Below are positions 8,763 through 56,145 of a stretch of 64,000 nucleotides of DNA, one piece after another. The translations under genes were made by a program, and so were the position numbers. The stretch covers positions 1-64,000 of IMG/VR virus record IMGVR_UViG_3300027822_000001; one strand, given 5' to 3'. Under the pieces are notes generated by a model, which was given only the letters and a program-made list of their open reading frames with translations, had not been told where the DNA came from and searched no databases. Position 1 is the first letter of the stretch, and every line of letters starts with the position of its first letter. This DNA comes from a virus.

Positions 8763-8876
8763 TAAAAATAAGTGAAATAAAAGATTTTGACTTATTCTTG
8801 TTCTACCCTTTACTAAGAGAATATAACAGAATTATAGTTTAACTACTATAAATTCTATAATATATAAAATAAATTA

Positions 8877-19964: not shown

Positions 19965-20039
19965 AAAGTTCGATTTCTGAACTTTTAATTTTTGATACAT
20001 CGTATCATTTTTATAAAAAAAGTCTGAAATTTGGACTTT
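19965..20039. promoter_or_regulatory. Pair of AAAGT-N11-ACTTT boxes (19965-19985, 20019-20039)
   Basis: AAAGT TCGATTTCTGA ACTTT and AAAGT CTGAAATTTGG ACTTT flanking a TGATAC-atc-GTATCA hairpin; the motif recurs at 41.4 and 56.1 kb. Confidence 0.65.
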
Positions 20040-20071
20040 AAAGTATCTTAAAATTTAAAATTCTGCAATTT

Positions 20072-20105
20072 TCCCCGACAATTTTCTAAGTTTTCGGGGA
20101 TTTTT
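20072..20105 (+). terminator. Putative intrinsic terminator
   Basis: TCCCCGA...TCGGGGA followed by TTTTT. Confidence 0.55.
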
Positions 20106-20156
20106 GTAGGCATACATTATAAGACACTTTAATAATTAACACAATAAAAAAACAAT

Positions 20157-22484
20157 ATGGCAAGATTTTGGAAAAGTAGGTACACTAGACCTATTAATAC
20201 TTTCGTACCACTACCATTAGATTATCTAAGGAAAGTAGTGGACAAAGAAAATAAAGGCTTTGCAGATATAAAGGACGCAGCAGGAAATATAGATACAACA
20301 AGTTTAAATTACAATGCTTGGTCTCCTAATGATGTAGCTGTTGCTGAGAAGTTTAATAAAGATAGGATGGATTATATAAGTGGAGCAATAGGTGCGATAG
20401 ACCCATCTAATCTAACAAAAGAAAATTGGAGAAACCAAAAAGATAAGGCAGCATCTTTTGTAATGAAGGCTAAAAGGTTAAATGCTAGTAAGAATACTCA
20501 AGGAACGGATGCTTGGCAGGTAGAACAAAATAAGAAAGCTTCTGATGCTAGTGATGTGGCTGTCAATAAATTAGGACATTATGATGCAGATATGAAACGT
20601 AATGCTATTTATGAAGGTAGGCGTAATTATTTGGCAAGAGATGCAGCCAGAACTGCCGGTAGCATAGGCTCTTTTGATAAGTATATTAGTGGTAGCTATT
20701 ATGACAAGGATAAGTTTTATACTGCTATGAAATCAATTGTACCTCAAAAGATAGGTAAATCTAGTAATTGGGGTTTTAATTCGGAATGGCTTGGTCATAC
20801 ATATAAAACTACGGAAACTAGAGATTTCGCTACTCTACTATCTAAAGGAAGTGGCTTATATAGAAGCAACAATGAACTTCAAAGTTGGCATAAAGAGCTG
20901 GCACGTTTAAATTCATATAATTGGACAACAAGAGATGCTAATGGTAATATAAGACATCTTACTGAGAATGAAAGAACACAAAGACTATCTCGTGAATATT
21001 CATCAATAGAAACTGGTGGATTAGATGCTAATAAATATAATAATTATATGACCGGGTTAGCTAATGCTCAAGAAGCTGAAGCTAATGGAAAAAAAGATGC
21101 TGTTAAAAATTATTATAATAGTAATCCTTTTAAAATAGAAGATATGATGGCTAGAGGTACTATTGCTGGAGATTTATTAGTTAGTAATGCTAATGCACTA
21201 CAACAAGAAGATGTAACAAAAAATACTACTTATAGTCATAATCCTAACTTTAATGCTGATGGAACAAGAAAAGGAATGCCCACTACAGGGTCTGAATCTA
21301 GAGGAGGTAACACAACTGAAGTATTTAATCCTACTAATTTCGTTTATGATTATAATAAAGCTAAAAATAATGGCACATTAAAAAATAATATATATGATTT
21401 TGGGATTAAGGCTTTTTCTTCACTCAATTCAAAAGCTAATGGAAGAGGTAAAGAAATGGTTAATGCAGTATATAATTTAAATCCTAGTTTATTTGATAAA
21501 CAAATGATTAAGTTAGGATATACACCAGATAAAACTCCAGGATTCAATTGGACAGAAGGTAATAAGTCTAAGAAATATGTATGGAAACCAAATGACTTTA
21601 ATAGAGGAATGGCAACTATTATGCAGAGTGGAGATTATGGTGATAAACAATATAGCAGGTCAGTAAATGCTTCTGATTGGGCTAATCGATTTATGACTCC
21701 TAAGATTGGAGTAGAAACTTCAGAGTTAGATAATATTAACGATTTTGCTAAGAAAGTTCATAGTATAAACAAACAATATACTAATGAAAGTAGTTTAACT
21801 GGAGCAGAACCACAAGAATATATAGTACAAGGAACTGATTTGATAATAACAAGTGAAAGCCCTCACTTTAAAAACTATATGGGTTATATAAAGAGGTCTT
21901 TAACAGGAAAACAATTAGGGACTGACTTAGAAGATAATCCTAATATAAGTGGTGTTGGCTTTTCTATAAATAATGGAGAATTTAGAGCTAAGATAAAAAC
22001 ACAAAAATATAAAGAAGACGGAACTGTAGAAGCTGGAAAGTCCACTTCACACTATGTTACTCTTAATGAAAACAACATTGGACTTCCTGGAGTTATAGGA
22101 GCTAATCTTATTGTTTCAGCTGAAAAGTACAATCTTGGAACAGACCAAAATATAGTAAATAAACAAACAGGATATAAGTATGGAGCTATATCTTTAATTC
22201 CTATAGATGAGTTAGAGCAAGCTGGAAGTAATACAGACCCTGATAAAGGATTTACTATAAATGCAGCTAGAAATAATGGACATGCAGTATCTTATCAATA
22301 TATTGGTACTGATGGTGCTGGTAACAATCATTATGCTGCTTATACATATGATAAAGCAGAAAATGGTTTTAAACCAATACAAAGTGTTTCAGGAAGTTCT
22401 GAATTTGTTGGTAATGATGGTATATTAGAAGCTTATGGAACTGCTAATAAAGAGGCTATTAAAACAAGTTTTTTAATTCAATAG
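20157..22484 (+). CDS. Cargo/ejection protein 2
   Basis: N-terminal RPINTFVPLPLD motif, no Cys, located between cargo 1 and the giant proteins. Confidence 0.65.
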   Translation: MARFWKSRYTRPINTFVPLPLDYLRKVVDKENKGFADIKDAAGNIDTTSLNYNAWSPNDVAVAEKFNKDRMDYISGAIGAIDPSNLTKENWRNQKDKAASFVMKAKRLNASKNTQGTDAWQVEQNKKASDASDVAVNKLGHYDADMKRNAIYEGRRNYLARDAARTAGSIGSFDKYISGSYYDKDKFYTAMKSIVPQKIGKSSNWGFNSEWLGHTYKTTETRDFATLLSKGSGLYRSNNELQSWHKELARLNSYNWTTRDANGNIRHLTENERTQRLSREYSSIETGGLDANKYNNYMTGLANAQEAEANGKKDAVKNYYNSNPFKIEDMMARGTIAGDLLVSNANALQQEDVTKNTTYSHNPNFNADGTRKGMPTTGSESRGGNTTEVFNPTNFVYDYNKAKNNGTLKNNIYDFGIKAFSSLNSKANGRGKEMVNAVYNLNPSLFDKQMIKLGYTPDKTPGFNWTEGNKSKKYVWKPNDFNRGMATIMQSGDYGDKQYSRSVNASDWANRFMTPKIGVETSELDNINDFAKKVHSINKQYTNESSLTGAEPQEYIVQGTDLIITSESPHFKNYMGYIKRSLTGKQLGTDLEDNPNISGVGFSINNGEFRAKIKTQKYKEDGTVEAGKSTSHYVTLNENNIGLPGVIGANLIVSAEKYNLGTDQNIVNKQTGYKYGAISLIPIDELEQAGSNTDPDKGFTINAARNNGHAVSYQYIGTDGAGNNHYAAYTYDKAENGFKPIQSVSGSSEFVGNDGILEAYGTANKEAIKTSFLIQ

Positions 22485-22487
22485 ACT

Positions 22488-25400
22488 ATGAAGATACTTG
22501 ATAATGACCCAACTAAGAATAAAAAACAAGAAACTCCAAAATTAGATAGTGAATCATTAGAGGAGTTACGTAAAGACGCAGAAAGAATAGAAGAGATAAA
22601 CAAATCTGGAATAGTGATGCATTCTCCAGATTTAAGAATGAACACAAGAAGAGAGAAGTTTAATTACAGTGATTATACAGATTATATAGATTTAGATGAG
22701 ATAAATTTAAATGATATAGAAGCTACTAATAAACTTAGAGCTAGCAGGCAATCTACAAGAGAACAAATAGGGTTATCTGTAGGTAACTTAGTAGGTAATA
22801 CTGCTGTTGGTATAATACATGATATTGGAGCAATTGGAGCTCTAGCTTCTGAGTGGGGTAGTGATAGAGATTATACTAATCCAATAACTGAGTGGGCTGA
22901 GAAGAATAGAAATCCTTTTGGAGAGGTTTATTCTGAGTCTGCTGATGGTATGGGCTGGGATAGCGGAAGTATTATAAATCATATATCAGGAGTTGTACAA
23001 CCAGTAATACAATTTGGCTTAGAATCTATACTACTTGCTCAAGCGTTCAAACCTTTATCAGCTATTGGTGAAGGTATGAGTCAATTAACTAGAGCTAAAA
23101 ATGTAGCACAAGCAGTAGAGAAAGCTAATTGGGCAACTAATATGACTAAAAGTGTTATTAATGGAGGAGCTAGAGCTATGGAAGGCTTTGTTCCACAAGC
23201 ATTAAATAGCTACTCAATAGGTTACTTTGCTAGTGTTGATGGGGCTCATAATGCATACACACAAGCATATGACCATGCTCTTAAGAATATGAGTATAGAA
23301 GACCCTTCAGATGCTACTCCAGAACAGGTAGAAAGAGCTAAGAAATTTGCTTCAAGTTTTGCTTCTGACTATGCTAAATTCAACACAATGTTATTTGGTA
23401 GTTTGAACTTTAGCTTACTTAAGCCAGGAATGCAAACCACCGCTATTAGAAATGAAGTATTAGGAGCTTTAAAAAATGAAGAAAAACAAATGTTAGCAAG
23501 TCAAGCTGAAGCTGGTTTAAACAGAACAATAAGTGCTGGTAATTTAAAAGAAGCCCTGAAAGGAATGGATGAGAAGATTGCATCTAACTTTGTCAGAAAA
23601 GGAGAGCGAGGAATAGACTATGCTAAAAAAGCAGCTCATGGAGCATGGGTTTTTGGAGCTATGGATATACTAGCTAACGAAAATACAACTAAGAAAGCAT
23701 TAGCTAATTATGAAAATGTTCTTGATGCTAATAAAGGAGAGCTACCATCATTTCTTTCAAGTGTTGGTAGAATGACTGGATACATGAAAGCAGCATCTGA
23801 TGAGTTGGATGATATTGTTAGAGGTAACGATCCTGACGGAGCTAAGAAGCTTAGGCTATCCCTATTAACTGGTGCTGCCTTTAGTCCAATACATAGTTTA
23901 GTAAATTCTAGGCTATCTAGAACAAAAGTATATACAAAAGATGCGGATGGAAATGTTATTCCTGTGTTGAATGAAGCAGGAGAACCTACTGGAAAGTATG
24001 AATCATATAAAACATCTAAGTATAAAGCACATAAAGTTGAAAGACAAAGAGTATTTGATTACTATAAAAACAGTCTTATAAAAGATTTAGATGTAATTGA
24101 AAATGCTGATAATAAATTAAAGCTTATTGCTGATGTTGGTGAAGAAGAAGCAGGTATAACTCAAGATGAAGTTTTTAGGGACTTATTTGATTTACAATCA
24201 TATGAAATGATTACAAGAGGTGGTAAAGATTTTCTTATTAACTCTCTTAAAGATGTTATGAATGTAGATAATACTGTAGATATGGGAGCTAAGATGGTTG
24301 AACAAAAAGCTATGTTAGATGCTAAGATAGCTGAAATTGAAAAGATTCCTTCAGAGAAGAAAACAACTGAGCAATTTGATGAGTTAAAGTCTTTAAAAGA
24401 GCAATCTAAAGACTTAGCTGAGAAGTCTGTACGTTATAGTGGAAAATCTGAAGCAATGATTAAAGGATTTGCTGATGAGATGGAAACTAAAGAAAGGGCT
24501 GGAAAAGCTTCTAAATATAGAGAAAAAGCTAATAAACTTATTGAAGATATTAAATACTTAGATTCTAAATATAAAGAATATAAAGATAATTTTGGGCACG
24601 GTAAGACTGCTGCTTTGGGACTTCCTGAGTTTCTTCTTAAGCTTGAACAAAATAAACTAACTGCATCTAATTGGTTAAAAGAAAACCCCTTAATTGATAA
24701 TCTTACTAAAGGTAAAGATGAATCTTATAATAATCTAGTTAAATATAAGTTACTAGATAATAAGTTAGAGATTTTAGCAACAGCTATGGTTGGAGCTTCT
24801 CCTTTAGAAGTTTCTACGCTTAAAGCTGATTTTGATAAGACAAGAAATGAAATACGAGAAACAGAATCTTATAAATATAGAGATGAGTTAGATAAAGCAA
24901 GTGAAGAAATAAAAAGTAAGTCACAGCAGTTAACTACTGAGTTAGACGCTACAATAACAGATAATAAAGAAGTATCGGAACCTTTAAGGAAGAAATCTAC
25001 TGAGAATAAGAAGTTAAGTAGAGAATGGAACAACTTAGTTAAAGAAACATCTACATTAAATGATAAGAAAATAGAACTTAAAGATAAATTAGATAATAAA
25101 GAGGTATCAGAAAAGGATTATAGAAATCAAAGCAAAAAGATATATAAGGAGTTGTCTTCTCAGTATGATAAGATGGCTAAATTAAGAAAAACAGTTTCAA
25201 CTAATAAGATGGAATTGTCTAGACTAACTAATTCTAGGGAAACTTTTGATAAGCAAGAGGAAAGAATTACATCTGAAATAGAAGAATTATCTAAACAATT
25301 TAAGGATAATGTAGCTAATATAGATAAGTTTTATAGTGACCTAAAAGAGTTAGATAAAAGAATTAAAGTAGATAAAGAACTTACTGCCTATAATTCTAAG

Positions 25401-28373: not shown

Positions 28374-28391
28374 TAATTATATATATGATAT

Positions 28392-31300
28392 ATGAGGTGT
28401 AATGAATTAATTAAAAGAAAGGATGGCTTAGCTAATTATAATTTTTTAGAAGCTTCAGTTGGAGAAAATGCTGCTATTGAGTCTTTAAAGAGTTATGACT
28501 TTAGTAAAGATGTCGTTCCTTTCGACCATACATTTAAAGGAGAAAAATCTAAGTTGTTTGATGAGCTTACTAATCAGTATGGCTTAAAGAAAGCTATACA
28601 AGTTAGTTTTTTAATTAGAACAACTGATTTTCTTGAAAAGTATGGAGATTGGACAGTTGATAAGAATGACTTCGTTGGTAAGTTGAATGAACAGAAAGAA
28701 CCAACATTAGATGCAGTAAATAAGATATTTAGAAATGAGAGTGCTAGCAAAGAAATGGAAGAGCCTACTAAACATGATGTGCTTAGAAAGAAACTAGAAT
28801 CTGATTCTAATTATAAATTGGGTGAGGCTTCTGTAGAAGAAGTAAGTGATATGTTAGAGTCTGGTGTTGCTCTTGCTACAAATCTTGTTATTAGAGATAA
28901 TGTTAAAAAGAGTACTATATTCAATGCCTTATTAAATACTTTTAGTATTCAAAGAAATAAAGCATCTAAGTTTATAGATTACCAAGAGTCCTTAGCTGAG
29001 CATAATAAACTTCCAAAGTCTGAGCTAGATAAAATAAAGAGAGGAAAAGAGTTATTAGATACTATATTAGATAATGAAGAATATAAAACTAATTATCTAA
29101 CCTTAATAGATTCTGAATTAGATAGTATGGGATTTAATACTATCAATAAAGAAGCCACTACAGACATAAATGATAAAAATGCTGAAAATCCTATACTTAA
29201 AGAAATGTGGGATGAGCAATCTAAGTTTGAAGTTCCTATTAAGAACACTTTGCAATTTAATATAAGGATGCTATTAGGCTCTATTCCTATTCCTGAGTTA
29301 GATAATGGAAATTTAACGGGTAATTATAAAACCAACTCTATAGGACTAGCACATACATATACTTCAAATAATATAACTTTAAAATTATTAGACTACTTTA
29401 ATCATAGGGTTGTAGATAGAAATTCATTTATGAGTGATTTGAAGTCCTCTGGAATACCTGAGTTTGTTGAGCTTGCAAGTAAAGTAGATAAACTATCATA
29501 TAATAAAGATAGATTACTTAATGCTTTAACTGCTACTGTTGGTAGACTAAAAAACAATAAAGTTGTTGCTATATCTGAAGGAAATAATTTTATTGTTTAT
29601 AATACTAATAACAGGTCTGATAGAAAATATATAACAGATACATGGTATGGAAATCAAAATATTCTATTTAAAGAATCCGATATTGTAGAGCTTAATAAAA
29701 ACAATGAATTAGTTTACTCTGAAACAGGCAAAAAAAGATTACAGCATGAGTATAATAATATACATCAAATATTAAATTCATCAAATACTAGACATATAGC
29801 TGCATCTCATTTTGTAGGTAAACTTAGTAGTTTAGTACACTCTGATAAGTTTGGAGAAGCTAAATCAGAAGAAAAGACTAAGATGCTTAATGATATGATA
29901 AGTATGAAAGAAGGCAAGACTATAAAAAGTAATAGTTTATTGATGCCTGTGGAAGATGTATATTCATTATTACCTACCATACTAAAGAAAGGAAAAGACG
30001 GAAGAATTTCTTTTAAAACTTCTGACTATGATGAGCTGTCTAAAAAACTCTTAGACTTAGATATAAAAGAAGATACCGAAAATGTAGACGATGCAATTAA
30101 CATAAATAAAATAAATGTTGTATCTCCTTTAATACGACATTATTTAGCTCTTACTGGAATGGATTTTGAACTTGATACTATTAAGAAGTTCTTACAAAAT
30201 CCAGGAAGATACATGACTGATTTAACAGATGGAGTAACAGAACCAACTGTTAAACTTTCTGACTTAACTACTCCAAGAAAAGTAGCGAATGGTGTAAATG
30301 TTTTACATTTATTAATACAGGATATAAATAAAGGGGGCTCTGGACAAAAAGATGAAAATGCTAACAGTCTTAGAAATAACAACCCATTAAATACTAATGC
30401 TTCTAAAAAGGTATTTACTAAGTTGAAAGAAATTGAAGAGGTTGCTGATTTATCTTCTACTTTTATCAATTCTTTCGGTAAACAAGAGTCTTCTTATGGC
30501 TTTAATACATTCTTATCAAAAGAGATTAACAACTTAAAAGGAAATACATTAGATGGAATGAATACAGACCCCCTATCAAGAAGAAGTCTCTGGTATAAAG
30601 CCTTTAAAGGAGACGATTCTGTTGCTGGTTTGATTGAAAGACCTGAAAGATTATCTCTTTTGTTTGGTGATGGAGTTAAAGAAGCAAAGACTGGAAAAAT
30701 AATTAACAGAGCTTCAGCATCACCTCTTGATAAAGAAGTTATGAGAATAAACTTATTTGCTTATAATAATGCTGGTTTTACTGATAGACTATCTGTTATA
30801 GATGCTTTAGTGTTTTCTGATAAATCTAGAACTAGAAAGATATTAGCTCCAAGAATTAGTTTAAAAGGAGAAGATTATAACTTTAATCTTGACTTTAAAA
30901 ATAAGGAGAGTTTAAAAGACTATTCTATAAGTGATGTTCAATATGGAGATGACGTAAAACATGTACTTACTGATATGGCGTTAACTGAAATAGACAGAAT
31001 TAATGATACTGTATTAAGACACAAAGAAGCAAAAGATGTAATGACTTCTGAAAGAAGTATAGGTGGCTCTAAATTTTTAATATTTCCCTCATTAGATAAT
31101 AAAGTTATAAATTCTTTTAAAAGGTCTGATGGAAGTTTTGATACCTCTAATAAGGAGTTTATATCAAAGGTTCAAAAACATATGAATTTACTTTTAACAG
31201 CAAATGCTAATGAGAACTTAAAAGAATGGAAAGATGTTGATTTGATAAGAGCTTCTGGTGGTATTAAATATTTAGATAGTAGGCATAAAAAACATGTTGG

Positions 31301-34300
31301 AGAGAAGATATCTGTAAAGGATAGTAATGATAGAAACATATTTAATTATGATAAAAGAACAAAAGATTCTTATGTAACAGCTGATACCGCTTTAGAATTA
31401 GCTCTTAATGAAATGGTAACTAATCTCAATATGATTCAGTTAGTTGGAGATGTTGCTGACTACTATAAAGCAGGAAATACTCCTGAAGAAACATCAGACA
31501 ACACTTTCTCAAACTACTATAAAAGACTTGGAAGTGTAGGGGGTGCTAAAATGAATATAGCACAAGAATTTAGAGCAAAGTTTGGTAAAGTTACTAAGAA
31601 TGTTAAACATAATAGAATAAATTATGTATATGCTAAAGATATTAAAACTAATAAATATGCTAAAGAATATTTAAATGCTCTTAATGTCTCTGGTTGGGAA
31701 AATGTAAATATGTCTGATGCTGCAGAATATACAACACTTAGAGACCACATAGTAACATTACATGGAGAAGGAAGACTTAATGATAATGTCTTTAATAAGA
31801 TACATTCCAAAATAATAGAAAGTTATAGAAATGACACTCTTGTTAAATTAACTGAAGATGAGGCTATTGCTATAATACCACAAAAACCTTTATATGCGGG
31901 TACTAATAATGTTGATGGACTTAGAGTTGCTACTATTGTTAAGTCAAGTGCATTTCCTTTATTAGAAAGTATAACTGGAGGAACTCCTTTTGATGCTGTT
32001 AGAAAAGCAATGGAAGCTAAAGAGAAAGAAGAAATATTTGATAGAGACAATAAGTTAGCTTTTGATGATTCTAATGAAATTTTAGAGTTATCTACTACTA
32101 GACTTGCTTTTGAATCTGGAGTAAAAGTAGGTAATGCTAAACTAAATGATATTTTTAATGAGGATTTTACAATTAAAGATGGAGCTTTAAAAGACATAAA
32201 ATATACTAACGTAGACAGAGAACATTTAGGCATTCAACAAGAAGAAAGTGAGAATGATAGTAGAAAGATAAATATTGTAAGTCAAATGAATAAACTCGTT
32301 ACTTCTGAAATATTAGATACAAAAGGCTTTAAACTTCCTGATAAAGAAAAAGAAATGAGTGGTATTGAGTTAAGAGACTTAAAAGAGAAACTTAAAAAAG
32401 CTATAATGGATAAGAAAGCCATTAAGTTATTTAAAGATGTAGGATATGATGAAGCTACTAATTCATTTACAGATGAAAAGAAATTCATGAAGTATCTTGA
32501 ATCTAAATTATCTGCTAATGAGATATCAGCAGAAGATGTAAAGATGCTTATTGATAAGGATGGAAATCAAGTAGCTCCTCTATATCTTAATAAATCTTAT
32601 GGAAAGATAATGAGTTCTTTATTAGCATCTATTAGTAAAGATGTGATAAAACCTAAAATAAGTGGTAAAGGAGCAGTTCAATTAAGTAGTGTCGGATTGC
32701 TATTTAATGGAGATATGAATAACTCTAACATCATATTTACTAGAAGAACTGATGCAGATGGCAACATAATTAAACTTGATAGATTAGAACATACTAAATA
32801 TAAAAATGGAGAACTTAAAAGAGCTCAACTTTTAGTATCTAGAGAGTTCTTTGAAAAGTTTGGAATAGATTTAGATAATGCTACTGAAATCATTGATGGT
32901 AGGAAAGTTATGAAAGAGGGAGTAATTGATGATAGACTATTAAAAGCAATATCAGCTCGTATTCCTAATCAAAAACACTCTAGTATGTTGCAAGCTGAAA
33001 TAGTAGGCTTTCTACCAAAAGATGTTAAAGAAACAGTAATTGTATCAGATGGAATAACAAAACAGATGGGTTCTGACTTTGATATTGACCATTTATATAA
33101 CTATTTATATAACTATAAAGTACAGAAAATTACTCATAAAGAAGATTTAACAAAAGATTTAACTAAGTTTAACAAACTTGTGGAAAGAGCTAAAGAAGGA
33201 TATGCTCCTAGAAAAAGTAATCTTCATAAAGTTTTAAAAAGTATGGATAGAGAAGACTATAATGAGGAACTAATAAAAATAGGAATAGCTAAACATTTAG
33301 ATAAATTTTATGATACTAAATCTAAACAACTTTACGATATAGTTAGAGATTTTAAGCTAAGTAAAATAACTATGGTTGATGCTAATAGAGATAAAATTAA
33401 TAAAATAACAGACTTATCTACAGAAGCATTAGAAAATAGATATATAGATATTCATCACTCTATACTGGAACATAAAGAAGTATTACCTAAAATGTTAGAA
33501 GTACTTGATTTACCTGATGCTAAATTAATTACTAAAGATATAGATAGCTCAGTTCCTAAAATAGAAAATACAATGTTCTCTCCTTTATCTGGAGTATATA
33601 ATAAAAGACAATATGAGAGTAATCAAGGAGGTAAAGATGGTATATCTATACAAAGTTCTTTGAGTATGCTTCATATTGCTTTAGAAAAAGATAACTTTGA
33701 GTTACAGTTTAAAAAGTTTAGTGAAACTAAGAGAGAAAATGAAAATGTATTTAAATTTATAGTAGATGGTAAAGAAGTAGTATTTAAAGCTATAGGTAGA
33801 GGAAGTTATAATTTTAAAGGAAACAAGAGAACAAATCTTACTACTAATACTATACTACAAAATGAAGCTGTTGATAATGCTAAAAATAAATTACTATTTA
33901 GATTAGGCTATTCAGCAGTAACTTCTCCAGCTTATAATTTATTAAACTTTCTTGCAAAAGATGGAAAGTCTATGCCTTTAAGTATGATAGCTAAGATGTT
34001 TAGACAGAAAGGAGTATTAGAAGCTTATAGATATGCTGAGAATAAGACATCTATGTTTAATGATTCTTCTAAATCTTTCTCTGAGTATATGAAAGAATAT
34101 GCATTAAATAAGTATGATGGAGATAAAAACTTTTCAATATCAGAGGAAATTTTAGATAAGGGGTTAAAAGGTAAAAATACTAGTGATTCTAGTTTAAATA
34201 ATTCTGATTATGAAAGCTTGCAATCTACTCTTATTGATAAGTTATCTAAAGCTCAGGAATTTGGTTCTAATCTACTTAGAATATATTCATCAGCTAATTT

Positions 34301-37300
34301 AGAAACTAAAGGAATAGGAAGTTCTACTGGAGAGCTATTATTAAAAGAATACAACATAAATAAATTTGTAGTAAATAACTCTAGATTTAGAGGAACTTAT
34401 AGATTACTTGGAGATGCTATAAATATGGATAATGGAGTAAGAAATGTTGGTGGCAATCTTACAGAGCTTGGTAGAATTTATGATTATGGAATAAGAAAAG
34501 CTCTTAATTTTTATGAGTTAAGAGATATTAAGAATAATCCTAGAACAATGTTGGGAAGCTCTAGATATAAAAATACAATCAGACAGTTTATACGTTCTGG
34601 AGCAAATAGTGAGAAAGCTATAAAGAGAGTAGATGGAGCTTATGCTACATATGCTAATCTTAATATAGATAATCCATTCTTTAAATCATCTGGAGAAGCT
34701 GTAACTATTAATTCAGTAAGAAAAGTTTTATTAACTGGAGATAATGATGTTTATACCAGACTTATCAAGCATTTAAAAGAACCTAGTAACTTAGAGGGTA
34801 GAACATTCTTAAATAACATTAATGTTCTTCCAAAGAAAAATGTAGCAGACCCTGTTATACTTAAGTTAGTATCAGGAGACCTTTCGGATATAAAGATAGA
34901 TGAGTATATACGAAGTTTTAATGAGCTACTAACTAGTAATAATAGTAAGTCTCGAAACTTAGGTAAAGATATATTAAGAGTTATGCTTTCTCAAGGAAAT
35001 GCATATTCTCCTAATGGAATAAATAAATTATTACCTAGAGCTTATTTAATGGAACATCCAGATTTTGTTAATGCTATTAAGAATAGTAGCTTGAAAGATA
35101 TAAATTCTACTATACTGCATGAACAGATAGTTCAACATAATCCAACATTATCTGAGAAAGATTCTAACTATAAAAGAACTAAACAATTAGCCGAAACTGA
35201 TGGCTCTTATGTTCAGATAAATATTGAAGCAGATAAGGCGGATACTTTACCTGAATACTTATCTGGTAAAGACCCTGAAAGAGGATATGTTCCACTTAAG
35301 AAAGTAGGTGTTGTAGAGTCGTTATCTAATGAAGAAACTATAGAAGTTATTTATAAAGCAATTTCTAAATTAGGAAGTGGTAACTCTAATATGACTGAAT
35401 ATGACCCTTATAGTGTTGAAACTACTAGCCTTTTTAAGAACAACAACCCTTTAATGTCTTTTGAAGAATATGCTGAAAATAATAATTTAGAGCATTTAAA
35501 AGATTTAGCAAATAACAGCTTACGATTACAAGATGATTATGGTTCTTATACAGTAGAAAGAAATGATAAAGATTTAATATTTGATGAATATAATATAAAA
35601 GGAGATACACCAGAAGATTTAAGTTCTGTATTAAATAATGTAAGTGGTACAAATAAAGTAATAGCTGATGTTACTTCTGAGCTTTTAGATAAGTCTGCTA
35701 AATTTAAATTTAAAGTAACAGATGAAGCTAAGGATGGAGAATCTAGTCCATCAGCCAGAGGAGTTGTTACTGAAGATGGTTTAAGTATAAGACTACATAA
35801 CTTTGATACTGCTAATTCTGATAATCCAGAAGCATTTAGAAAAGAATTTGAAGAAGTAGTATCACATGAATCTAGCCATCAAGTGTTATTTAACGAAGCT
35901 GTTGCTTATGATAAAGGACTTTCTAAAAATAAGGGTAATAGGTTAGAAAAACAATTTGCTTTATTAGATACCTATTTAGGTAAACTAAAAAAAGCTATTA
36001 TAGATGGAGATAATACAGAACGAGGTGAAGAGTTTAAAACTTTTGAAGATAAATACAATAATAAAATAGAAGGAGACATCTCTGTAAGTGAAAGAGATAG
36101 AAATCAAGGACTTATGTCTGTTCACGAATTAATAGCTGATATAGCTAATGATGGTTTCTTAGATTCTCTTAATGGCTATGAAGTTGATGGCTTAGATGTT
36201 GCCAATACTCTATCTACTAAGATGAAAAGATTATATGTAGCACTCATTGAAAGTAAAGGGTTGCAGAATAACAAAGGAGCTCAAGAATTAATAGCTAATG
36301 TGCTTAAATTTTATGATGATGTTGCTAAGGCAAAAAAAGTTGATACTAGTGTTGAAAAGAAGGGAGAAGAAGCTCTTCCTGATGCACTTTTAAAACAAAA
36401 AGAACATGAAGTTGTTAAGCCAGAAGAAGCTAAAGATATAAAATTTGATGATATTTTAGTTAAAAAAGAAAAAGGTGTTAAACCTAAACAATTAGAAAAA
36501 GATGAAAAAGGTTTCTATAATGTTAATATTAGTAGAGGAATAAAAATACCTAAAGACACTTCTACTATAGACTATTTAAGAGAGAAAGGAACATTTTCTA
36601 AGATAGCTGAGTATGGTACTAAGAATAGTAATGAAGCTCTGTATGAAATTGATAGATTAAATAAAATAGGAGCTGAAGACAATAAAAGATTTGCACTTGA
36701 TTCTTATATAAAACCGGATGGTTCTAGAATATACAAGCCAATAGAAGTGAGCTCTAGAAAGGATAGGATGTATAATTTTAGAGATAAAGAAACTACTTCT
36801 GGAGTTCTTAAGGATATTGCATCCAACAAAGAATTTAGTAAAGATGTTAGAAATGCTGCAAATGACTTATTGAAATTTGAAAACACTGATAAAATAGGAA
36901 CATTCATTAGAAGTGATAAATACTTTATGGCTGAAAATGTGTTAAAAGATGAGAGCTTTGACTTTTTAGAGGAAGCCAATGGAACTGCTTCTGGAAATCT
37001 TGTAAGAGTTAGAGATGGAGCTACTGTAAGTGAATATTTACATGAAGTATATCATACATATTTAACAGACTTGATAGCTAATAATCCTAAGTTTAGAAAT
37101 AAACTTAAAGATTATCAAAAAAGAGTGCTAGAAAATTTTAAAGATAATAGAATAATTGATGACATATATAAAGATTTAGACGAATTTGCTGTTATGGCAG
37201 TAACTAAACCTGAGTTAATTTCCTTATTAAAATCTATGCACAGTGTAGATAAAGAAGGAAGTGTGTTATACGATGAACTTGTAGATAAGTATAAAGAAGC

Positions 37301-37580
37301 TGGTAAAGACACTGGAATATATGAAGAAATAAAGACCTTATTGAACGACAATATAAATATGAATAAAGGTGAGTTGTCGATTTCACAAGAGGCTGCGAAT
37401 TGGAGCGATTACTATAATAGAGGTGGTACTGTTGATGGATTATCTGTTGAACAAAAATATCTAATAGGTATTGGAAAAGAACCAACAGAAGTCAATAGTC
37501 ATCTCAAAGAAATACAAGAAAGAGTTCCTAATTTTACAATGGCTGACCTAACAGAGTTGGCAAGAAGTATTTACTGTTAA
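28392..37580 (+). CDS. Virion-packaged double-psi-barrel RNA polymerase with two C-terminal zincin domains
   Basis: ARIPNQKHSSM and GSDFDID (33075-33089; DFDID is the catalytic motif of phi14:2 gp66-type RNAPs); PQKP, KSSAFPL, ESGVKVG, VDNAK; HESSH and HEVYH. Confidence 0.9.
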   Translation: MRCNELIKRKDGLANYNFLEASVGENAAIESLKSYDFSKDVVPFDHTFKGEKSKLFDELTNQYGLKKAIQVSFLIRTTDFLEKYGDWTVDKNDFVGKLNEQKEPTLDAVNKIFRNESASKEMEEPTKHDVLRKKLESDSNYKLGEASVEEVSDMLESGVALATNLVIRDNVKKSTIFNALLNTFSIQRNKASKFIDYQESLAEHNKLPKSELDKIKRGKELLDTILDNEEYKTNYLTLIDSELDSMGFNTINKEATTDINDKNAENPILKEMWDEQSKFEVPIKNTLQFNIRMLLGSIPIPELDNGNLTGNYKTNSIGLAHTYTSNNITLKLLDYFNHRVVDRNSFMSDLKSSGIPEFVELASKVDKLSYNKDRLLNALTATVGRLKNNKVVAISEGNNFIVYNTNNRSDRKYITDTWYGNQNILFKESDIVELNKNNELVYSETGKKRLQHEYNNIHQILNSSNTRHIAASHFVGKLSSLVHSDKFGEAKSEEKTKMLNDMISMKEGKTIKSNSLLMPVEDVYSLLPTILKKGKDGRISFKTSDYDELSKKLLDLDIKEDTENVDDAININKINVVSPLIRHYLALTGMDFELDTIKKFLQNPGRYMTDLTDGVTEPTVKLSDLTTPRKVANGVNVLHLLIQDINKGGSGQKDENANSLRNNNPLNTNASKKVFTKLKEIEEVADLSSTFINSFGKQESSYGFNTFLSKEINNLKGNTLDGMNTDPLSRRSLWYKAFKGDDSVAGLIERPERLSLLFGDGVKEAKTGKIINRASASPLDKEVMRINLFAYNNAGFTDRLSVIDALVFSDKSRTRKILAPRISLKGEDYNFNLDFKNKESLKDYSISDVQYGDDVKHVLTDMALTEIDRINDTVLRHKEAKDVMTSERSIGGSKFLIFPSLDNKVINSFKRSDGSFDTSNKEFISKVQKHMNLLLTANANENLKEWKDVDLIRASGGIKYLDSRHKKHVGEKISVKDSNDRNIFNYDKRTKDSYVTADTALELALNEMVTNLNMIQLVGDVADYYKAGNTPEETSDNTFSNYYKRLGSVGGAKMNIAQEFRAKFGKVTKNVKHNRINYVYAKDIKTNKYAKEYLNALNVSGWENVNMSDAAEYTTLRDHIVTLHGEGRLNDNVFNKIHSKIIESYRNDTLVKLTEDEAIAIIPQKPLYAGTNNVDGLRVATIVKSSAFPLLESITGGTPFDAVRKAMEAKEKEEIFDRDNKLAFDDSNEILELSTTRLAFESGVKVGNAKLNDIFNEDFTIKDGALKDIKYTNVDREHLGIQQEESENDSRKINIVSQMNKLVTSEILDTKGFKLPDKEKEMSGIELRDLKEKLKKAIMDKKAIKLFKDVGYDEATNSFTDEKKFMKYLESKLSANEISAEDVKMLIDKDGNQVAPLYLNKSYGKIMSSLLASISKDVIKPKISGKGAVQLSSVGLLFNGDMNNSNIIFTRRTDADGNIIKLDRLEHTKYKNGELKRAQLLVSREFFEKFGIDLDNATEIIDGRKVMKEGVIDDRLLKAISARIPNQKHSSMLQAEIVGFLPKDVKETVIVSDGITKQMGSDFDIDHLYNYLYNYKVQKITHKEDLTKDLTKFNKLVERAKEGYAPRKSNLHKVLKSMDREDYNEELIKIGIAKHLDKFYDTKSKQLYDIVRDFKLSKITMVDANRDKINKITDLSTEALENRYIDIHHSILEHKEVLPKMLEVLDLPDAKLITKDIDSSVPKIENTMFSPLSGVYNKRQYESNQGGKDGISIQSSLSMLHIALEKDNFELQFKKFSETKRENENVFKFIVDGKEVVFKAIGRGSYNFKGNKRTNLTTNTILQNEAVDNAKNKLLFRLGYSAVTSPAYNLLNFLAKDGKSMPLSMIAKMFRQKGVLEAYRYAENKTSMFNDSSKSFSEYMKEYALNKYDGDKNFSISEEILDKGLKGKNTSDSSLNNSDYESLQSTLIDKLSKAQEFGSNLLRIYSSANLETKGIGSSTGELLLKEYNINKFVVNNSRFRGTYRLLGDAINMDNGVRNVGGNLTELGRIYDYGIRKALNFYELRDIKNNPRTMLGSSRYKNTIRQFIRSGANSEKAIKRVDGAYATYANLNIDNPFFKSSGEAVTINSVRKVLLTGDNDVYTRLIKHLKEPSNLEGRTFLNNINVLPKKNVADPVILKLVSGDLSDIKIDEYIRSFNELLTSNNSKSRNLGKDILRVMLSQGNAYSPNGINKLLPRAYLMEHPDFVNAIKNSSLKDINSTILHEQIVQHNPTLSEKDSNYKRTKQLAETDGSYVQINIEADKADTLPEYLSGKDPERGYVPLKKVGVVESLSNEETIEVIYKAISKLGSGNSNMTEYDPYSVETTSLFKNNNPLMSFEEYAENNNLEHLKDLANNSLRLQDDYGSYTVERNDKDLIFDEYNIKGDTPEDLSSVLNNVSGTNKVIADVTSELLDKSAKFKFKVTDEAKDGESSPSARGVVTEDGLSIRLHNFDTANSDNPEAFRKEFEEVVSHESSHQVLFNEAVAYDKGLSKNKGNRLEKQFALLDTYLGKLKKAIIDGDNTERGEEFKTFEDKYNNKIEGDISVSERDRNQGLMSVHELIADIANDGFLDSLNGYEVDGLDVANTLSTKMKRLYVALIESKGLQNNKGAQELIANVLKFYDDVAKAKKVDTSVEKKGEEALPDALLKQKEHEVVKPEEAKDIKFDDILVKKEKGVKPKQLEKDEKGFYNVNISRGIKIPKDTSTIDYLREKGTFSKIAEYGTKNSNEALYEIDRLNKIGAEDNKRFALDSYIKPDGSRIYKPIEVSSRKDRMYNFRDKETTSGVLKDIASNKEFSKDVRNAANDLLKFENTDKIGTFIRSDKYFMAENVLKDESFDFLEEANGTASGNLVRVRDGATVSEYLHEVYHTYLTDLIANNPKFRNKLKDYQKRVLENFKDNRIIDDIYKDLDEFAVMAVTKPELISLLKSMHSVDKEGSVLYDELVDKYKEAGKDTGIYEEIKTLLNDNINMNKGELSISQEAANWSDYYNRGGTVDGLSVEQKYLIGIGKEPTEVNSHLKEIQERVPNFTMADLTELARSIYC

Positions 37581-37589
37581 TTTGTATAA

Positions 37590-41345: not shown

Positions 41346-41356
41346 ATAATAATTAG

Positions 41357-41382
41357 GGGATGCCGTTAGGTGTCCCTTTTTT
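41357..41382 (+). terminator. Intrinsic terminator ending the virion arm
   Basis: GGGATGCC-GTTA-GGTGTCCC followed by TTTTTT. Confidence 0.8.
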
Positions 41383-41412
41383 GTTTTTACTCCAAACTTC
41401 GACAGATTGAAC

Positions 41413-41464
41413 AAAAAAAAGTCCAAAAATCACACTTTTTAGTATGAAATTTGGACTTTTTTTT
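41413..41464. terminator. Bidirectional long hairpin made of two abutting, oppositely oriented AAAGT-N11-ACTTT boxes
   Basis: A8-GTCCAAA...TTTGGAC-T8 at the convergence of the two arms; boxes at 41418-41438 and 41439-41459. Confidence 0.65.
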
Positions 41465-41492
41465 ATAAATTGAACTTTGCGTCATCGCCTAA

Positions 41493-42556: not shown

Positions 42557-42567
42557 ATTTTATACTT

Positions 42568-44879: not shown

Positions 44880-44886
44880 TTATTGG

Positions 44887-45981: not shown

Positions 45982-46015
45982 TTATTATATATAAATCTTA
46001 AATTATTATTACTTG

Positions 46016-47047: not shown

Positions 47048-47053
47048 TGTTTA

Positions 47054-52244: not shown

Positions 52245-52268
52245 ATAATACTAGTTTTATTGTTAATA

Positions 52269-54533
52269 TTATCCACATTTGTCATAGCCGCATGATTTAC
52301 ATACTGTACAGCCATTTTCTATAACTAAGGGAGCTCCACACTTTGGGCACTCTTCATTAGTTTCTCTTACTCCAGTATACTGTCCTAAAACTCTTTTTAT
52401 AACATTTTCAAAAGTTCCTACAATCATTGTTACTTTATCAAAACTTTTTAATATATCTTTAACTTCTACTCCATTACTTAAAAGCGTAGAAATAAGTCTT
52501 GTAAATACTTCTTCAGTTCCAGAACTATAATGACTTATAATATCATTTATGATGAGTTCTGTGCTTATTAAGTTATATATAGATTGTTTATTACCCTTTA
52601 TTTTTTCTAATTTGGCATTTGTTATTTTCTTTAAAACTATTCCTTTAACTTTAAGTGCAAATAGTTCATAAGGTTTGTCATCAATCAAACCTACCAATAC
52701 TACCCAGTCTTTACCGTCGATTTTTACATTATGTACCTCACACATGAGAAGCGTAGGTCTATTCTTTGCGGTCGCCAAATCTGTACTGCCAAATTTCTTT
52801 AATATACCTTCCCTCGAGCCGTCACGATACAAGGTGAATCCCTTTAGTTTCTTATCATAAGCATACCTAACTAGCTTATGTACTTCTTCTAGAGGAAAGT
52901 TTCTCTTTACATTATGAGTAACACTTATTGATTGGTCTGTATGTTTTTGAAGAGTAGCTTGTAAATCTATTTTATCATAAACATCAATCTCTTCTGCTGT
53001 ATTTTTATAATATGGACTTTTATCTACATGTTCCATAGGATTATCATTATAGCCAGCAATCTTAGCCCACTCTAAGAAAGGTGGATGATAAGTCTCAAAC
53101 TCTACCCAACCTTCTCCATTTTTATCAGTCTTAAATATAGTATCTTCTGTTGTTGCTCTTCTTCTTCTCTTAAAATGAAGTGCAAAAGCAGGTTCCATAC
53201 CACTAGTTACTCCAGCTATCATACTTCCAGTACCAACAGGTGCTACTGTTAAAAATCCAATGTTAGCGGGAACTTTATTCTTATACTCAGAGCCTAATAC
53301 TTTTAAAGTATCTTTCATAAATTTATGATTCATGAAAGCTTTTCTATTTCTGGCTATCTTTAATATTGGAGCTTCAATATCTAAATCAAGTGATGTTTTA
53401 ATAACTTCTACTTTTATAATTCTTGAAATCTTATCTACTATATCTCTATTTCCATAAGATAAGTTTAAAGCAGCTAAGAAGTCTCCAATGCCTGTCTTTC
53501 CTATTCCTATTCTTCTTCCTTCTCTTAAGATAGCCTTTATTTTAGTCCATAATTCAGTCTCTACTCCAGGTTCGCTTACTTTCAATATTTTATCTAAATG
53601 TTTTAATTCTTCCTCTACCACTGTATTCATAAATTTAGTAAGAACTTCGGTATCTCTTTTTATTAAACCAACATCTATTCTAGCATTAGAAGTAAATTTA
53701 TTCTCTACATAAGAATACCAATTGAGATGAGCTAATAAACAACTTCCATAAGGATTAAGAGGTATTTCGCCACAAGGATTAGTTCCTGTTGTACTAAACT
53801 TGTGTACTTTCATAGCATCTATAGGGTTGTCAAGAACAGTATCCCAAAATAGCAATCCTGGTTCTGCATTCTTCCACATATTCATAATAGCTTTCTTTCT
53901 TAATGTGCTGTGTTCAGACAGAAAAAAATCTTCATCTACTTTTAATGATATGTTTGCTCCAGTTATACTAATAGTATCTGTCTTAGCATCTACAAAATGT
54001 GTTGCATCTTTATGTTTGTAGGAAAGAGCTAACATTAAAGCTCCTCTTCTACCCTCTTGTGACACTTCTAATGTTGTATTAGAGTATCTTTTCATAAAAG
54101 GAACTAGTCCAGTTGAGGTAGAAGCAGCATTATTTATAACGCTTCCTCTAGGCCTTATGTTATCTAAAGAAGTTCCTACTCCTCCTCGTCTCTTCATGAT
54201 ATCTACTAGCATATTATCAATTTTGCAAATGCTATCGTAGTTATCTTCTGGAGATGGAATTACATAGCAATTAGATAATGATGTTAGTAGGGCAGTCCCA
54301 TAAGAAGCTGTTATACTTCCACCAAGAACAACTCTTTTGTTTACAAGCATTGAATGTAAATGAGCTATATCATCCTCAGACATTATAGTATTCTTGTATC
54401 TTTTAACTTTTGCTGTTATTCTGTTAATTATATCTAAATAACTATTTTCTATATATTTACCATCCTTTTTCAAAGCATACTTTCCTCTTAATGTCTTTCC
54501 AAAGGCTTCTCCAAATTCTTGTTCAAATGTCAT
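52269..54533 (-). CDS. nrdJ: Class II (adenosylcobalamin-dependent) ribonucleotide reductase
   Basis: LSNCYV, GGVG, QEGRRGALM, ANIS, EPG, TNPCGE, R.IGIG, TVAPVGT, TSGMEP, DQSIS; C-terminal CPKCG...C..CG...CG. Confidence 0.92.
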   Translation of the reverse strand: MTFEQEFGEAFGKTLRGKYALKKDGKYIENSYLDIINRITAKVKRYKNTIMSEDDIAHLHSMLVNKRVVLGGSITASYGTALLTSLSNCYVIPSPEDNYDSICKIDNMLVDIMKRRGGVGTSLDNIRPRGSVINNAASTSTGLVPFMKRYSNTTLEVSQEGRRGALMLALSYKHKDATHFVDAKTDTISITGANISLKVDEDFFLSEHSTLRKKAIMNMWKNAEPGLLFWDTVLDNPIDAMKVHKFSTTGTNPCGEIPLNPYGSCLLAHLNWYSYVENKFTSNARIDVGLIKRDTEVLTKFMNTVVEEELKHLDKILKVSEPGVETELWTKIKAILREGRRIGIGKTGIGDFLAALNLSYGNRDIVDKISRIIKVEVIKTSLDLDIEAPILKIARNRKAFMNHKFMKDTLKVLGSEYKNKVPANIGFLTVAPVGTGSMIAGVTSGMEPAFALHFKRRRRATTEDTIFKTDKNGEGWVEFETYHPPFLEWAKIAGYNDNPMEHVDKSPYYKNTAEEIDVYDKIDLQATLQKHTDQSISVTHNVKRNFPLEEVHKLVRYAYDKKLKGFTLYRDGSREGILKKFGSTDLATAKNRPTLLMCEVHNVKIDGKDWVVLVGLIDDKPYELFALKVKGIVLKKITNAKLEKIKGNKQSIYNLISTELIINDIISHYSSGTEEVFTRLISTLLSNGVEVKDILKSFDKVTMIVGTFENVIKRVLGQYTGVRETNEECPKCGAPLVIENGCTVCKSCGYDKCG

Positions 54534-55225
54534 TTTTTATTAAATAATAAATAAGGTTTCTTATTAAGCTGAGTCATTTCAACAGCTTCTTCTACTTTAG
54601 ACATGTTCTTAGCCAGTATAAAATAATACTGTAAAAGCATAGCCTCATCATAAGAATCATCTAATCCATTATGCTTTTCAGAATAATCTAAAGTATTAAA
54701 AGCATATTTATAGAAAGCTTCAACTGTAGTCTTAACTTTTCCTGTTTTAGTTGTAAATCCATTCTTTCTACAAAAGCAGTCATAGCAAGGCTTTTGACTT
54801 TCTACTAAAGCTGCTAATATAGCAATATCTAAAACAGGCATTATTTTTCTTATAATGTGATTACTAAGAGGTTTTTTGGCATGAGTATACTTTGAAAAAG
54901 TATAGCTTAATGCTCTAACGTCAAAGTTTACATTAAAAGCAGAAAACATATCATAGTTATTAAAGAGTTCTTCTTTAAATATCTCTTTAAACTCAGAGAC
55001 AGTAACTACACGTGCTTTACCTTGTATAATTCTTTCTTCTAGTATATCTTTATTTTGATTATAAAAATAGGCTTTCTTGAACATTGGACTATTATATACA
55101 TCTGATATTATATAATCCTTACTTTTTATGTCTCCTGTTTCAGTATCTAAAATTGACAGTCCTGCTTCATATATGTCAGCATTCTTTAAATCTATTGTTT
55201 CAGTATCTATAACTAATATTCTCAT
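54530..55225 (-). CDS. DEDDh 3'-5' exonuclease
   Basis: VIDTET, AFNVNFD, EKHNGLDD. Confidence 0.85.
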   Translation of the reverse strand: MRILVIDTETIDLKNADIYEAGLSILDTETGDIKSKDYIISDVYNSPMFKKAYFYNQNKDILEERIIQGKARVVTVSEFKEIFKEELFNNYDMFSAFNVNFDVRALSYTFSKYTHAKKPLSNHIIRKIMPVLDIAILAALVESQKPCYDCFCRKNGFTTKTGKVKTTVEAFYKYAFNTLDYSEKHNGLDDSYDEAMLLQYYFILAKNMSKVEEAVEMTQLNKKPYLLFNKK

Positions 55226-55428
55226 ACTATTAAATTATAACTATCTCCAATACCTCTTAAAACTTTAGCAAGATGTAGTGCAAGATTAGCTTTACCCTCA
55301 TCACACATGCCTTCTAATATCTCCATTTGTTTATCTTTAGGGCAGTCTTCAAAAACAGTAAGTTGTCTTTTCTCTTCATCTTCAAATTTATAGAAGTAAA
55401 ATACTCCCGATAAGTTTCTCCTATGCAT
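55222..55428 (-). CDS. Small hypothetical protein
   Basis: RRNLSGVF...VFED pattern; coupled overlaps. Confidence 0.6.
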   Translation of the reverse strand: MHRRNLSGVFYFYKFEDEEKRQLTVFEDCPKDKQMEILEGMCDEGKANLALHLAKVLRGIGDSYNLIV

Positions 55429-56029
55429 ATAATTTATATTTGAAGTTATTAAAACTTTCTATACTTTTAAAACTCTTATATTTCTTTTCATCGTTTTCTA
55501 TATAAGATATTAAAAGCATGTGTCTATTATCTTTCGTATTATCTACTTTTGAGGATATATGAATCCAACTTGGATTATCAATATCTCCAAATTCCCATAT
55601 AAGTTGGTCAAAATCTAAGTTTTCAACAACAAAATAGAACATTTCAGAATTAGTTACTCTTCCATAAGTATCATCTATATCCATTGCCTCACACTTTACA
55701 TGTTGAGACCTATAAGAACCGCCAACTTTGATATTTAAAAATAGACATCTATACATGGAGTTTATCTTAATCATGACTCCAAAGTTATCTCTTATAGGCT
55801 CAAATAGGAGTAGTCCTAATTTTTTTAATTTAGTAAATTGAGCTTTTGAAGGGCGATTATCTATTCCTAACCTTTTAGCCTTATATGAGTAATAACATTC
55901 TTTTATAGATATGTGTGGTGTTAACATACCTTTTCTTAGCATTTTCTTTTCATTTAAATTGTTATATTGTTTATTATTAATTAGCATTATTAGTGCTTCC
56001 TCTAACGTTTTAGGCAACTTATCTTTCAT
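55421..56029 (-). CDS. Peptidase M15A-type endolysin
   Basis: INSMYRC..LN..VGG...SQH...AMDI, FDQLIWEF, WIHIS. The true start may be an internal Met. Confidence 0.85.
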   Translation of the reverse strand: MKDKLPKTLEEALIMLINNKQYNNLNEKKMLRKGMLTPHISIKECYYSYKAKRLGIDNRPSKAQFTKLKKLGLLLFEPIRDNFGVMIKINSMYRCLFLNIKVGGSYRSQHVKCEAMDIDDTYGRVTNSEMFYFVVENLDFDQLIWEFGDIDNPSWIHISSKVDNTKDNRHMLLISYIENDEKKYKSFKSIESFNNFKYKLYA

Positions 56030-56046
56030 TTTTCTGTATTTTTTAA

Positions 56047-56145
56047 AAAGTTAAAAATTCGTACTTTTTGTAAATTAAAAAAGCATCCTGATTTATAGTA
56101 GCGGGATAGCATCAAAAACCGGTAAAAGTCCAAAAAATCAACTTT
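56047..56145. promoter_or_regulatory. Pair of AAAGT-N11-ACTTT boxes (56047-56067, 56125-56145) flanking a terminator-like hairpin
   Basis: AAAGT TAAAAATTCGT ACTTT and AAAGT CCAAAAAATCA ACTTT. Between them (56077-56110) the minus strand reads GCtATCCCG...CAGGATGC-T6. Confidence 0.65.

Follow-up and report, generated by a model that had tools for sequence, protein, structure and literature searches.

A small family of polar 21-bp intergenic dyads in a crAss-like phage genome as candidate operators at transcription-unit borders

Transcription control in crAss-like phages is almost unknown beyond the cultured model phi14:2, a Cellulophaga phage in which host-type promoters were found but no regulator sites, with promoter motifs for the host RNA polymerase upstream of the gp069 and gp092 homologues, and in which the virion RNA polymerase prefers single-stranded templates (doi 10.1101/2020.03.07.982082). 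Here, we describe a 21-bp dyad, AAAGT-N11-ACTTT (the box), which recurs between genes, usually as pairs, in the crAss-like phage genome deposited as IMG/VR record IMGVR_UViG_3300027822_000001, and which we tentatively read as the operator of a dimeric DNA-binding protein. The window analysed comprised bases 1-64000 of this 92,595-bp virus record, a circular assembly with terminal repeats; positions outside the window are given on the whole genome.

Paired phage operators of the lambdoid OR/OL type are likewise 17-21-bp dyads with invariant arms and an A/T-rich centre that occur between genes in pairs around promoters, the two copies being tens of bp apart and one of them near a start codon; in IMG/VR locus L106 and other unrelated phages of that collection, two such dyads 60-90 bp apart surround a promoter just 5′ of the ATG. 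By contrast, the boxes occupy four junctions in all gene modules rather than one switch region, have a centre that is strictly polar with respect to transcription, are spaced out of phase with the DNA helix and come with no regulator gene that could be found. PeSL cassettes of T4-type phages are also short repeated intergenic elements of promoter and terminator type that border small transcription units, but they combine sigma-70 promoters with strong stem-loops, occur in many copies in hyperplastic regions and drive recombination (PMC2839356), whereas the boxes amount to eight copies of a dyad resembling a protein site, with no evidence of shuffling and, unlike mobile cassettes, with inter-box and surrounding sequences unrelated from locus to locus. 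The middle/late promoters of phi14:2 share with the boxes their genomic positions upstream of gp069-like and gp092-like genes, and also the host type, as a −33/−7 promoter follows a box in a distant relative described below. However, they consist of an A-rich block, TTG, a gap of ~19-20 nt and TAnnTTTG followed by TA, with no AAAGT-N11-ACTTT in the part examined, whereas the boxes are dyads and mostly lack a proper −7 partner.

A small, sharply bounded family of polar dyads

Five of the six boxes that the original prediction had placed in the window proved exact (19965, 20019, 41418, 56047 and 56125), and the sixth, at 41439, carries the degenerate left arm TTAGT with two mismatches, as it had been described. 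Against shuffled sequence, a comparison proposed at the outset, the boxes stand far above expectation and are confined to intergenic DNA: the five exact copies in the window compare with 0.33 expected, none of 100 shuffles reached five, and all seven exact copies in the whole genome are intergenic, where non-coding DNA makes up 8% of the sequence. Dinucleotide shuffles of the intergenic DNA alone (n = 2000) gave a mean of 0.048 copies and a maximum of two, and AAAGT-N11-ACTTT ranked first among intergenic 5-mer dyads with spacers of 0-20, both in the source phage (G000) and in its relative G002. The family is small and, because copies with one mismatch were not enriched (13 versus 10.4 expected, none truly intergenic), sharply defined and bounded; a weight-matrix scan found no additional copies. 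A literature search found no description of the AAAGT-N11-ACTTT motif, and Rfam gave no match at the boxes. The motif is real and new, and the kind of element is familiar.

To describe the anatomy of the box, 13 boxes from G000 and G002 were aligned in the orientation of local transcription. The arms were invariant in the 11 exact intergenic copies of the two phages, and partial conservation of the flanks (left cTAA, right TTa) extends the dyad to ~29 bp. In 12 of the 13 copies the sense strand was T-rich at the centre; box position 12 was T in all 13, and its mirror position was A in only four (two-sided binomial P = 0.003). As the sense-strand T/(A+T) reached 0.67 in box centres versus 0.47 in spacers and 0.43 in genes, the background does not account for this polarity. 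The claim that the T-rich centre points in the direction of transcription, with oppositely oriented boxes where the two arms of the genome converge, was therefore borne out, whereas the oriented consensus first given for the box was exact in four of six copies, the copy at 56047 having one mismatch and that at 56125 being off by one base. Both half-degenerate copies (41439 and the one abutting the portal box of G002) have kept the right half and lost the left arm, and in most copies the right arm continues into 4-8 T.

Box positions 6-8 and 14-16 were variable and mostly non-complementary. Folded as RNA, single boxes reached −0.5 to −9 kcal/mol with loops of 5-11 nt, and only boxes 1a and 1b had complementary inner parts. 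Given this weak folding and the unpaired inner positions, base pairing is not the selected property of the box. The invariant arms, combined with the lack of covariation and the weak pairing, thus favour recognition of the sequence by a protein over a selected hairpin.

In G000 the boxes form four pairs, three in the window and one outside it (Table 1). The first boxes of the pairs lie 15-33 nt past stop codons, and box 4b ends 15 nt before the start codon of the gp92-like gene. A hairpin with a T-run lies between the two boxes of pairs 3 and 4 and downstream of pair 1. The original prediction had seen a terminator-like hairpin at every pair, which holds for the convergence pair, where the hairpin at 41355-41378 passed the terminator scan as the only canonical one; at pairs 1, 3 and 4 the scan returned none, the hairpins there having 15-nt loops (20073-20099 and genome 84826-84858) or being weak (56083-56110). 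Past the last gene of the minus arm, the sole terminator-like structure is the composite 2a+2b hairpin, which resembles a bidirectional terminator.

Table 1 Coordinates of the boxes and of neighbouring features
Feature	Position	Strand	Description
Box 1a	19965..19985	+	exact dyad, 15 nt past stop of 886-aa gene; complementary inner positions give 9-bp stem
Box 1b	20019..20039	+	exact dyad; TTTG at box positions 12-15; 117 nt 5′ of ATG of 775-aa gene
Hairpin	20073..20106	+	6-bp G+C stem, 15-nt loop, then T-run; between box 1b and next gene; no terminator by scan
Canonical intrinsic terminator, plus arm	41355..41388	+	from terminator scan
Box 2a	41418..41438	-	exact dyad; centre T-rich on minus strand
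Box 2b	41439..41459	+	abuts 2a; degenerate left arm TTAGT; T-rich side on plus strand
Composite 2a+2b hairpin	41413..41464		15-bp stem flanked by A8 run and eight-T run; from folds of both strands
Box 3a	56125..56145	-	exact dyad, 21 nt past stop of 69-aa open reading frame
Box 3b	56047..56067	-	exact dyad; ends 17 nt ahead of ATG of endolysin gene (55421-56029)
Weak hairpin and T6 run	56077..56110	-	between boxes 3a and 3b
Fourth pair (boxes 4a, 4b)	genome 84780-84800, 84867-84887	sense as pair 1	exact; between portal and gp92-like gene, outside window; encloses hairpin and T-run
HU/IHF-like open reading frame	11716..12222	+	homologue of phi14:2 g073, annotated 'IHF subunit'

The gene maps, which are simple maps of open reading frames, gave the gene order of a crAss-like phage. 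The plus arm carries the terminase, the portal (genome 82460-84754), the gp92-like gene, the major head protein, tail genes, the HU/IHF-like gene and a block of giant virion proteins (12923-41345), including a giant virion RNA-polymerase-like protein at 28392-37580. The minus arm, from 41493 to ~70900, carries the replication genes (primase, helicase, ribonucleotide reductase, dUTPase) and the endolysin, and is followed by a non-coding-rich, early-looking region at 70.9-77.2 kb, in which the minus strand at genome 76356-76390 matches the DUF805b RNA of Rfam (RF02914; 44 bits, gathering score 35.6). Gene order matched that of phi14:2 between the portal and the major head protein and between the IHF-like gene and the giant proteins. 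G+C content is ~30%, the sense strand is A+G-rich and the skew switches at 41.4 kb. A blastn search of a phage collection with 4 kb of the genome gave no match.

Several neighbouring structures accompany the boxes. The box-adjacent hairpins (20073-20099, genome 84826-84858 and 56083-56110) have a 4-7-bp stem and a ~15-nt loop containing CTAA or CTAT, and a similar hairpin with an 11-nt loop and a different stem sequence lies at the junction orthologous to pair 1 in the box-less relative G006 (L136:8164-8344), so that this hairpin type could represent another conserved element. The stretch between boxes 1a and 1b holds, at 19993-20007, a perfect stem of 6 bp closed by a 3-nt loop (TGATAC-ATC-GTATCA), with T-runs on either side, and G006 has a related block at the same junction (T-run, GAT ... 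ATCA, T-run). In addition, a longer dyad with a T-rich right part, AATAAGT-N16-ACTTATT, is located at 8767-8796 in the spacer 5′ of a 182-aa gene, one of the few genes common only to G000 and G002.

Conservation at orthologous junctions

Searching IMG/VR for a strict version of the box retrieved G002, a complete 93,904-bp record syntenic with G000. The two phages are distant: blastn aligned only parts of their best-conserved genes, at ~65% nucleotide identity, and none of their spacers, while protein identities ranged from 25 to 59%. G002 contained six exact boxes versus 0.38 expected. One (56134) lies between a 619-aa and a 726-aa gene, the homologues of the 886-aa and 775-aa genes that border pair 1; another sits at the portal stop codon, ahead of the gp92-like gene, and is followed by an abutting half-degenerate copy; two more lie 75 bp apart in the replication arm; and the remaining two, inside coding sequence, may be chance matches. 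Two box junctions of G002 are thus orthologous to those of pairs 1 and 4 in G000. The statistics, the intergenic-only placement and this conservation at orthologous junctions despite spacers that cannot be aligned uphold the view of the boxes as a phage-specific polar cis-acting system.

Conservation did not extend to all relatives. G006, a third, 96-kb IMG/VR genome at a similar distance, contained no equivalent dyad family, and phi14:2 had no exact box in the 45 kb examined. A MAFFT alignment of the G000/G006 junction was unreliable. A profile scan of IMG/VR gave 80 loci, among which the motif was present in G002 only, and in pattern scans of IMG/VR G002 was likewise the only true relative, other matches being unrelated palindrome arrays or chance. 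The portal, used as a single-protein query against IMG/VR, returned no relatives; portal homologues at 50-57% identity exist (P0002-P0004), and none of them turned up in the metagenome or genome scans. In unrelated viral contigs (IMG/VR L113-L115, L120, L124, L126 and L132-L134), 21-bp palindromes with AAAGT/ACTTT arms form tandem arrays of 4-8 nearly identical units, mostly with a TTTG centre and a period of 24-28 bp, which look like iteron arrays.

The arrangement at the 619-aa/726-aa junction of G002 is the most informative. The stop codon is followed by a strong terminator, 50 nt, the exact box (56134), 16 nt and TTTG-N20-TACCTTTG, a perfect promoter of the Bacteroidota type that is nearly identical to P110 of phi14:2. 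The box thereby occupies about −53 to −73 of a host-type promoter, with its centre at ~−63, and, being located between terminator and promoter, it lies in DNA that should be little transcribed. The stem of the strong terminator itself holds a box-like core with one arm mismatch.

Candidate functions of the boxes

We tentatively favour the reading that the boxes are operators for a dimeric DNA-binding protein at promoter/terminator junctions. The 21-bp dyad (~29 bp with its flanks) would be recognised by sequence as a DNA site by a putative binder encoded by the phage or by a Bacteroidota host. A host factor deserves serious consideration as the binder, the arms having been preserved between two phages this divergent. 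Such sites would mark transcription-unit borders in all three gene modules, usually as a pair whose first copy closely follows a stop codon and whose second precedes the next gene, and the bound protein would govern restart or read-through of RNA polymerase there. Direction would come from the T-rich centre, which often ends in TTTG and in some copies could act as a −33 element; the polarity might arise because the centre doubles as or abuts a −33 element, or because it determines which way the DNA bends. Where boxes face each other at the convergence point, they would also fold into a bidirectional terminator. The motif itself, its significance, its conservation, its polarity and its positions are observed; protein binding and an effect on transcription are what we infer.

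An operator would best account for invariant arms that show no covariation, for the confinement of the boxes to intergenic DNA and their arrangement in pairs, and for the G002 locus and the positions occupied. Also in its favour are the first rank of the dyad among intergenic 5-mer dyads in both genomes, the placement at orthologous junctions that correspond by gene order to promoter junctions of phi14:2, the −7-like elements downstream of three of the five TTTG-containing boxes, and the similar layout in unrelated phages such as L106. Of the mechanisms listed in the original prediction, an operator or roadblock for a dimeric protein likewise fits best, given the invariant arms, the lack of covariation and the box between terminator and promoter; a hairpin promoter for the virion RNA polymerase and a stop signal for DNA entry are disfavoured.

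Several observations weigh against an operator. No DNA-binding regulator was recognised among ~60 phage proteins scanned with Pfam or PHROGs, and the proteins common only to G000 and G002 (182, 133 and 198 aa) gave no lead to a binder. The centre-to-centre distances of paired boxes (54, 21, 78, 87 and 75 bp) are not whole helical turns, and helical phasing of the pairs was accordingly rejected. Boxes stand in replication, cargo/RNA polymerase and capsid modules alike, which is unusual for a regulator of one temporal class, and the convergence-point pair has no gene to control. A symmetric dimer alone does not explain the strict T-rich polarity. Canonical host-type promoters are almost absent beside the G000 boxes, and a motif carried by two genomes only offers thin comparative support.

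Known binding sites were compared with the box. LysR-type sites contain T-N11-A and combine a strong site near −65 with a weaker adjacent one. The box contains T-N11-A, which is a loose criterion; only G002 box 56134 (~−63) and the two abutting strong-plus-weak pairs fit the LysR-like geometry, and a LysR-type domain was not found among the ~60 phage proteins scanned. Judged by eye, a right arm resembling an ECF-sigma −35 element has no common −10 partner, and CRP-like TGTGA half-sites have the wrong spacing. Miniature inverted-repeat transposable elements were rejected, the sequences between boxes being unrelated.

It is unlikely, but worth weighing, that the boxes act at the level of RNA, as an A/U-rich hairpin with a U-run that serves as a weak or factor-dependent terminator, a pause, or a site for processing or for an RNA-binding protein, with two boxes in a row or an inverted pair proposed to make termination efficient. 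The location of the first boxes shortly past stop codons, the continuation of the right arm into a T-run, the U-rich centre of the transcript and the presence of boxes in all modules, as expected of terminators, are consistent with such a role, as are the inverted pair, a long hairpin between an A-run and a T-run that provides the sole terminator-like structure for the minus arm, and the box-like core embedded in the strong terminator stem of G002. However, the arms are invariant without covariation and the inner positions unpaired, half of the copies fold at −0.5 to −4 kcal/mol, far below intrinsic terminators, and only the composite 2a+2b hairpin, not single boxes, resembles one. A gap of 15-17 nt separates boxes 3b and 4b from the start codon that follows, little RNA is expected over G002 box 56134, which has a strong terminator on its 5′ side and a promoter on its 3′ side, and the genome has ordinary G+C-rich terminators elsewhere.

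We also consider it unlikely that the box is a core promoter element read by the host RNA polymerase, alone or with a phage specificity factor, in which the TTTG-ending centre would form the −33 element, or the right arm a −7-like element, and each sense box would start a transcript. The polarity follows transcription as this reading predicts, and the positions match promoters reported for other crAss-like phages: by gene order, the junctions of pairs 1 and 4 are the gp069 and gp092 promoter junctions of phi14:2, and pairs 1 and 4 as well as G002 boxes 56134 and 79440 lie upstream of gp069, gp092 or gp093 homologues. Compared with the −33 TTTG / −7 TAnnTTTG promoter, box 4a followed by its downstream sequence (TTTG, 22 nt, then TATTTTTT) matches at 9 of 10 positions, and three of the five TTTG-containing boxes are followed at 18-23 nt by a −7-like element that agrees at 5 of 6 positions (background rate, 10%). 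In boxes 3b and 4b, TAAC before the right-arm TTT gives five of the six defined positions of TAnnTTTG.

However, dyad symmetry is unusual for promoters, TTTG is missing from all four exact intergenic boxes of G002, and the sole perfect promoter lies downstream of a box, not within it. The promoters of phi14:2, mapped or motif-predicted, look different, their extracted regions sharing no dyad with the boxes and the boxes having no −7 block. Boxes 2a and 2b also match the Bacteroidota promoter at 9 of 10 positions, but they point antisense, so that the convergence pair would fire into both arms, while boxes 1b and 3a fail, and the first boxes are followed by hairpins and T-runs. A scan for promoters of the sigma-70 type found no more than chance.

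Two further observations concern promoters at these junctions. The −7-like elements GAAGTTTG (minus strand, 41393-41400) and GAACTTTG (plus strand, 41472-41479) are symmetric around the convergence pair, at promoter-like distances from the TTTG of each convergence box, and, if active, they would yield antisense transcripts into both arms. In phi14:2 (L017), the 14-mer AAACGCTATTAAAA is repeated just past the stop codons of g093 and g094, 5′ of motif-based candidate promoters of g092 and g093, and could be a lineage-specific counterpart of the boxes.

A quite unlikely but distinctive reading is that the boxes are orientation-dependent boundary elements, at which a bound protein would stop or license RNA polymerase from one direction only, dividing the genome into units and perhaps allotting these to either the injected virion RNA polymerase or the host enzyme. 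The sites of mTERF, TTF-I/Reb1 and Tus-Ter resemble the boxes in layout only, as oriented sites recognised by sequence, the boxes standing at the ends of units and facing each other where units converge, and no homologous protein was found. These systems are not known from phages, and polar protein-mediated terminators or insulators, known from mitochondria and eukaryotic rDNA, have not yet been described in a phage.

It is very unlikely that the HU/IHF-like protein is the binder, bending the junction DNA in an oriented way, although it had been named as a candidate. The homologue of phi14:2 g073 is real and has HU-like structural neighbours in the Atlas, IHF-type sites are polar, ~30 bp long and rich in A/T tracts, and the boxes have a central T-tract. 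However, nothing ties the protein to the boxes: it is also present in G006 (phmmer E 6.6e-4) and in phi14:2, with no box family seen in G006 or in the 45 kb of phi14:2 examined, it shares only 28% identity between G000 and G002, yet the box arms are identical, and it has no Pfam match. By eye, the IHF consensus WATCAA-N4-TTR, which is that of E. coli and may differ from the specificity of the phage protein, had no full match in the eight boxes, with WATCAA present in 56125 only.

A polar DNA element unrelated to transcription, such as a site of fork arrest or of strand-specific nicking or a marker for packaging or entry, whose orientation would follow replication, which proceeds in the direction of transcription in both arms, is very improbable. 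Oriented motifs such as Ter and KOPS show this kind of pattern around a terminus, and the boxes do have one orientation per arm and one of each at the convergence point. However, they are strictly intergenic and closely linked to start and stop codons, to hairpins and to one canonical promoter, and nothing points directly to these functions; moreover, the flip of polarity between the arms is not that of a single direction of DNA entry and argues against a stop signal for stepwise entry, as had been suggested.

Hairpin promoters of the N4 type, which have a 5-7-bp stem and a 3-nt loop upstream of early genes, are also suggested by the giant virion RNA-polymerase-like protein and by the single-strand preference of the phi14:2 enzyme, but we consider them highly improbable, as folding is weak or absent in most boxes, loops measure 5-11 nt and inner positions are mostly unpaired, no box lies in the early-looking 70.9-77.2 kb region, and the modules that carry boxes are transcribed by the host RNA polymerase in phi14:2.

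Significance for crAss-like phages

The boxes precede the virion-cargo/RNA polymerase block, the head genes and the lysis gene, and therefore offer a handle on regulation in an uncultured lineage. The box could serve as bait for the binding protein, help to predict transcription units and allow relatives to be recognised. The finding would gain broader interest if the polarity of the boxes does reflect control of RNA polymerase that depends on direction.

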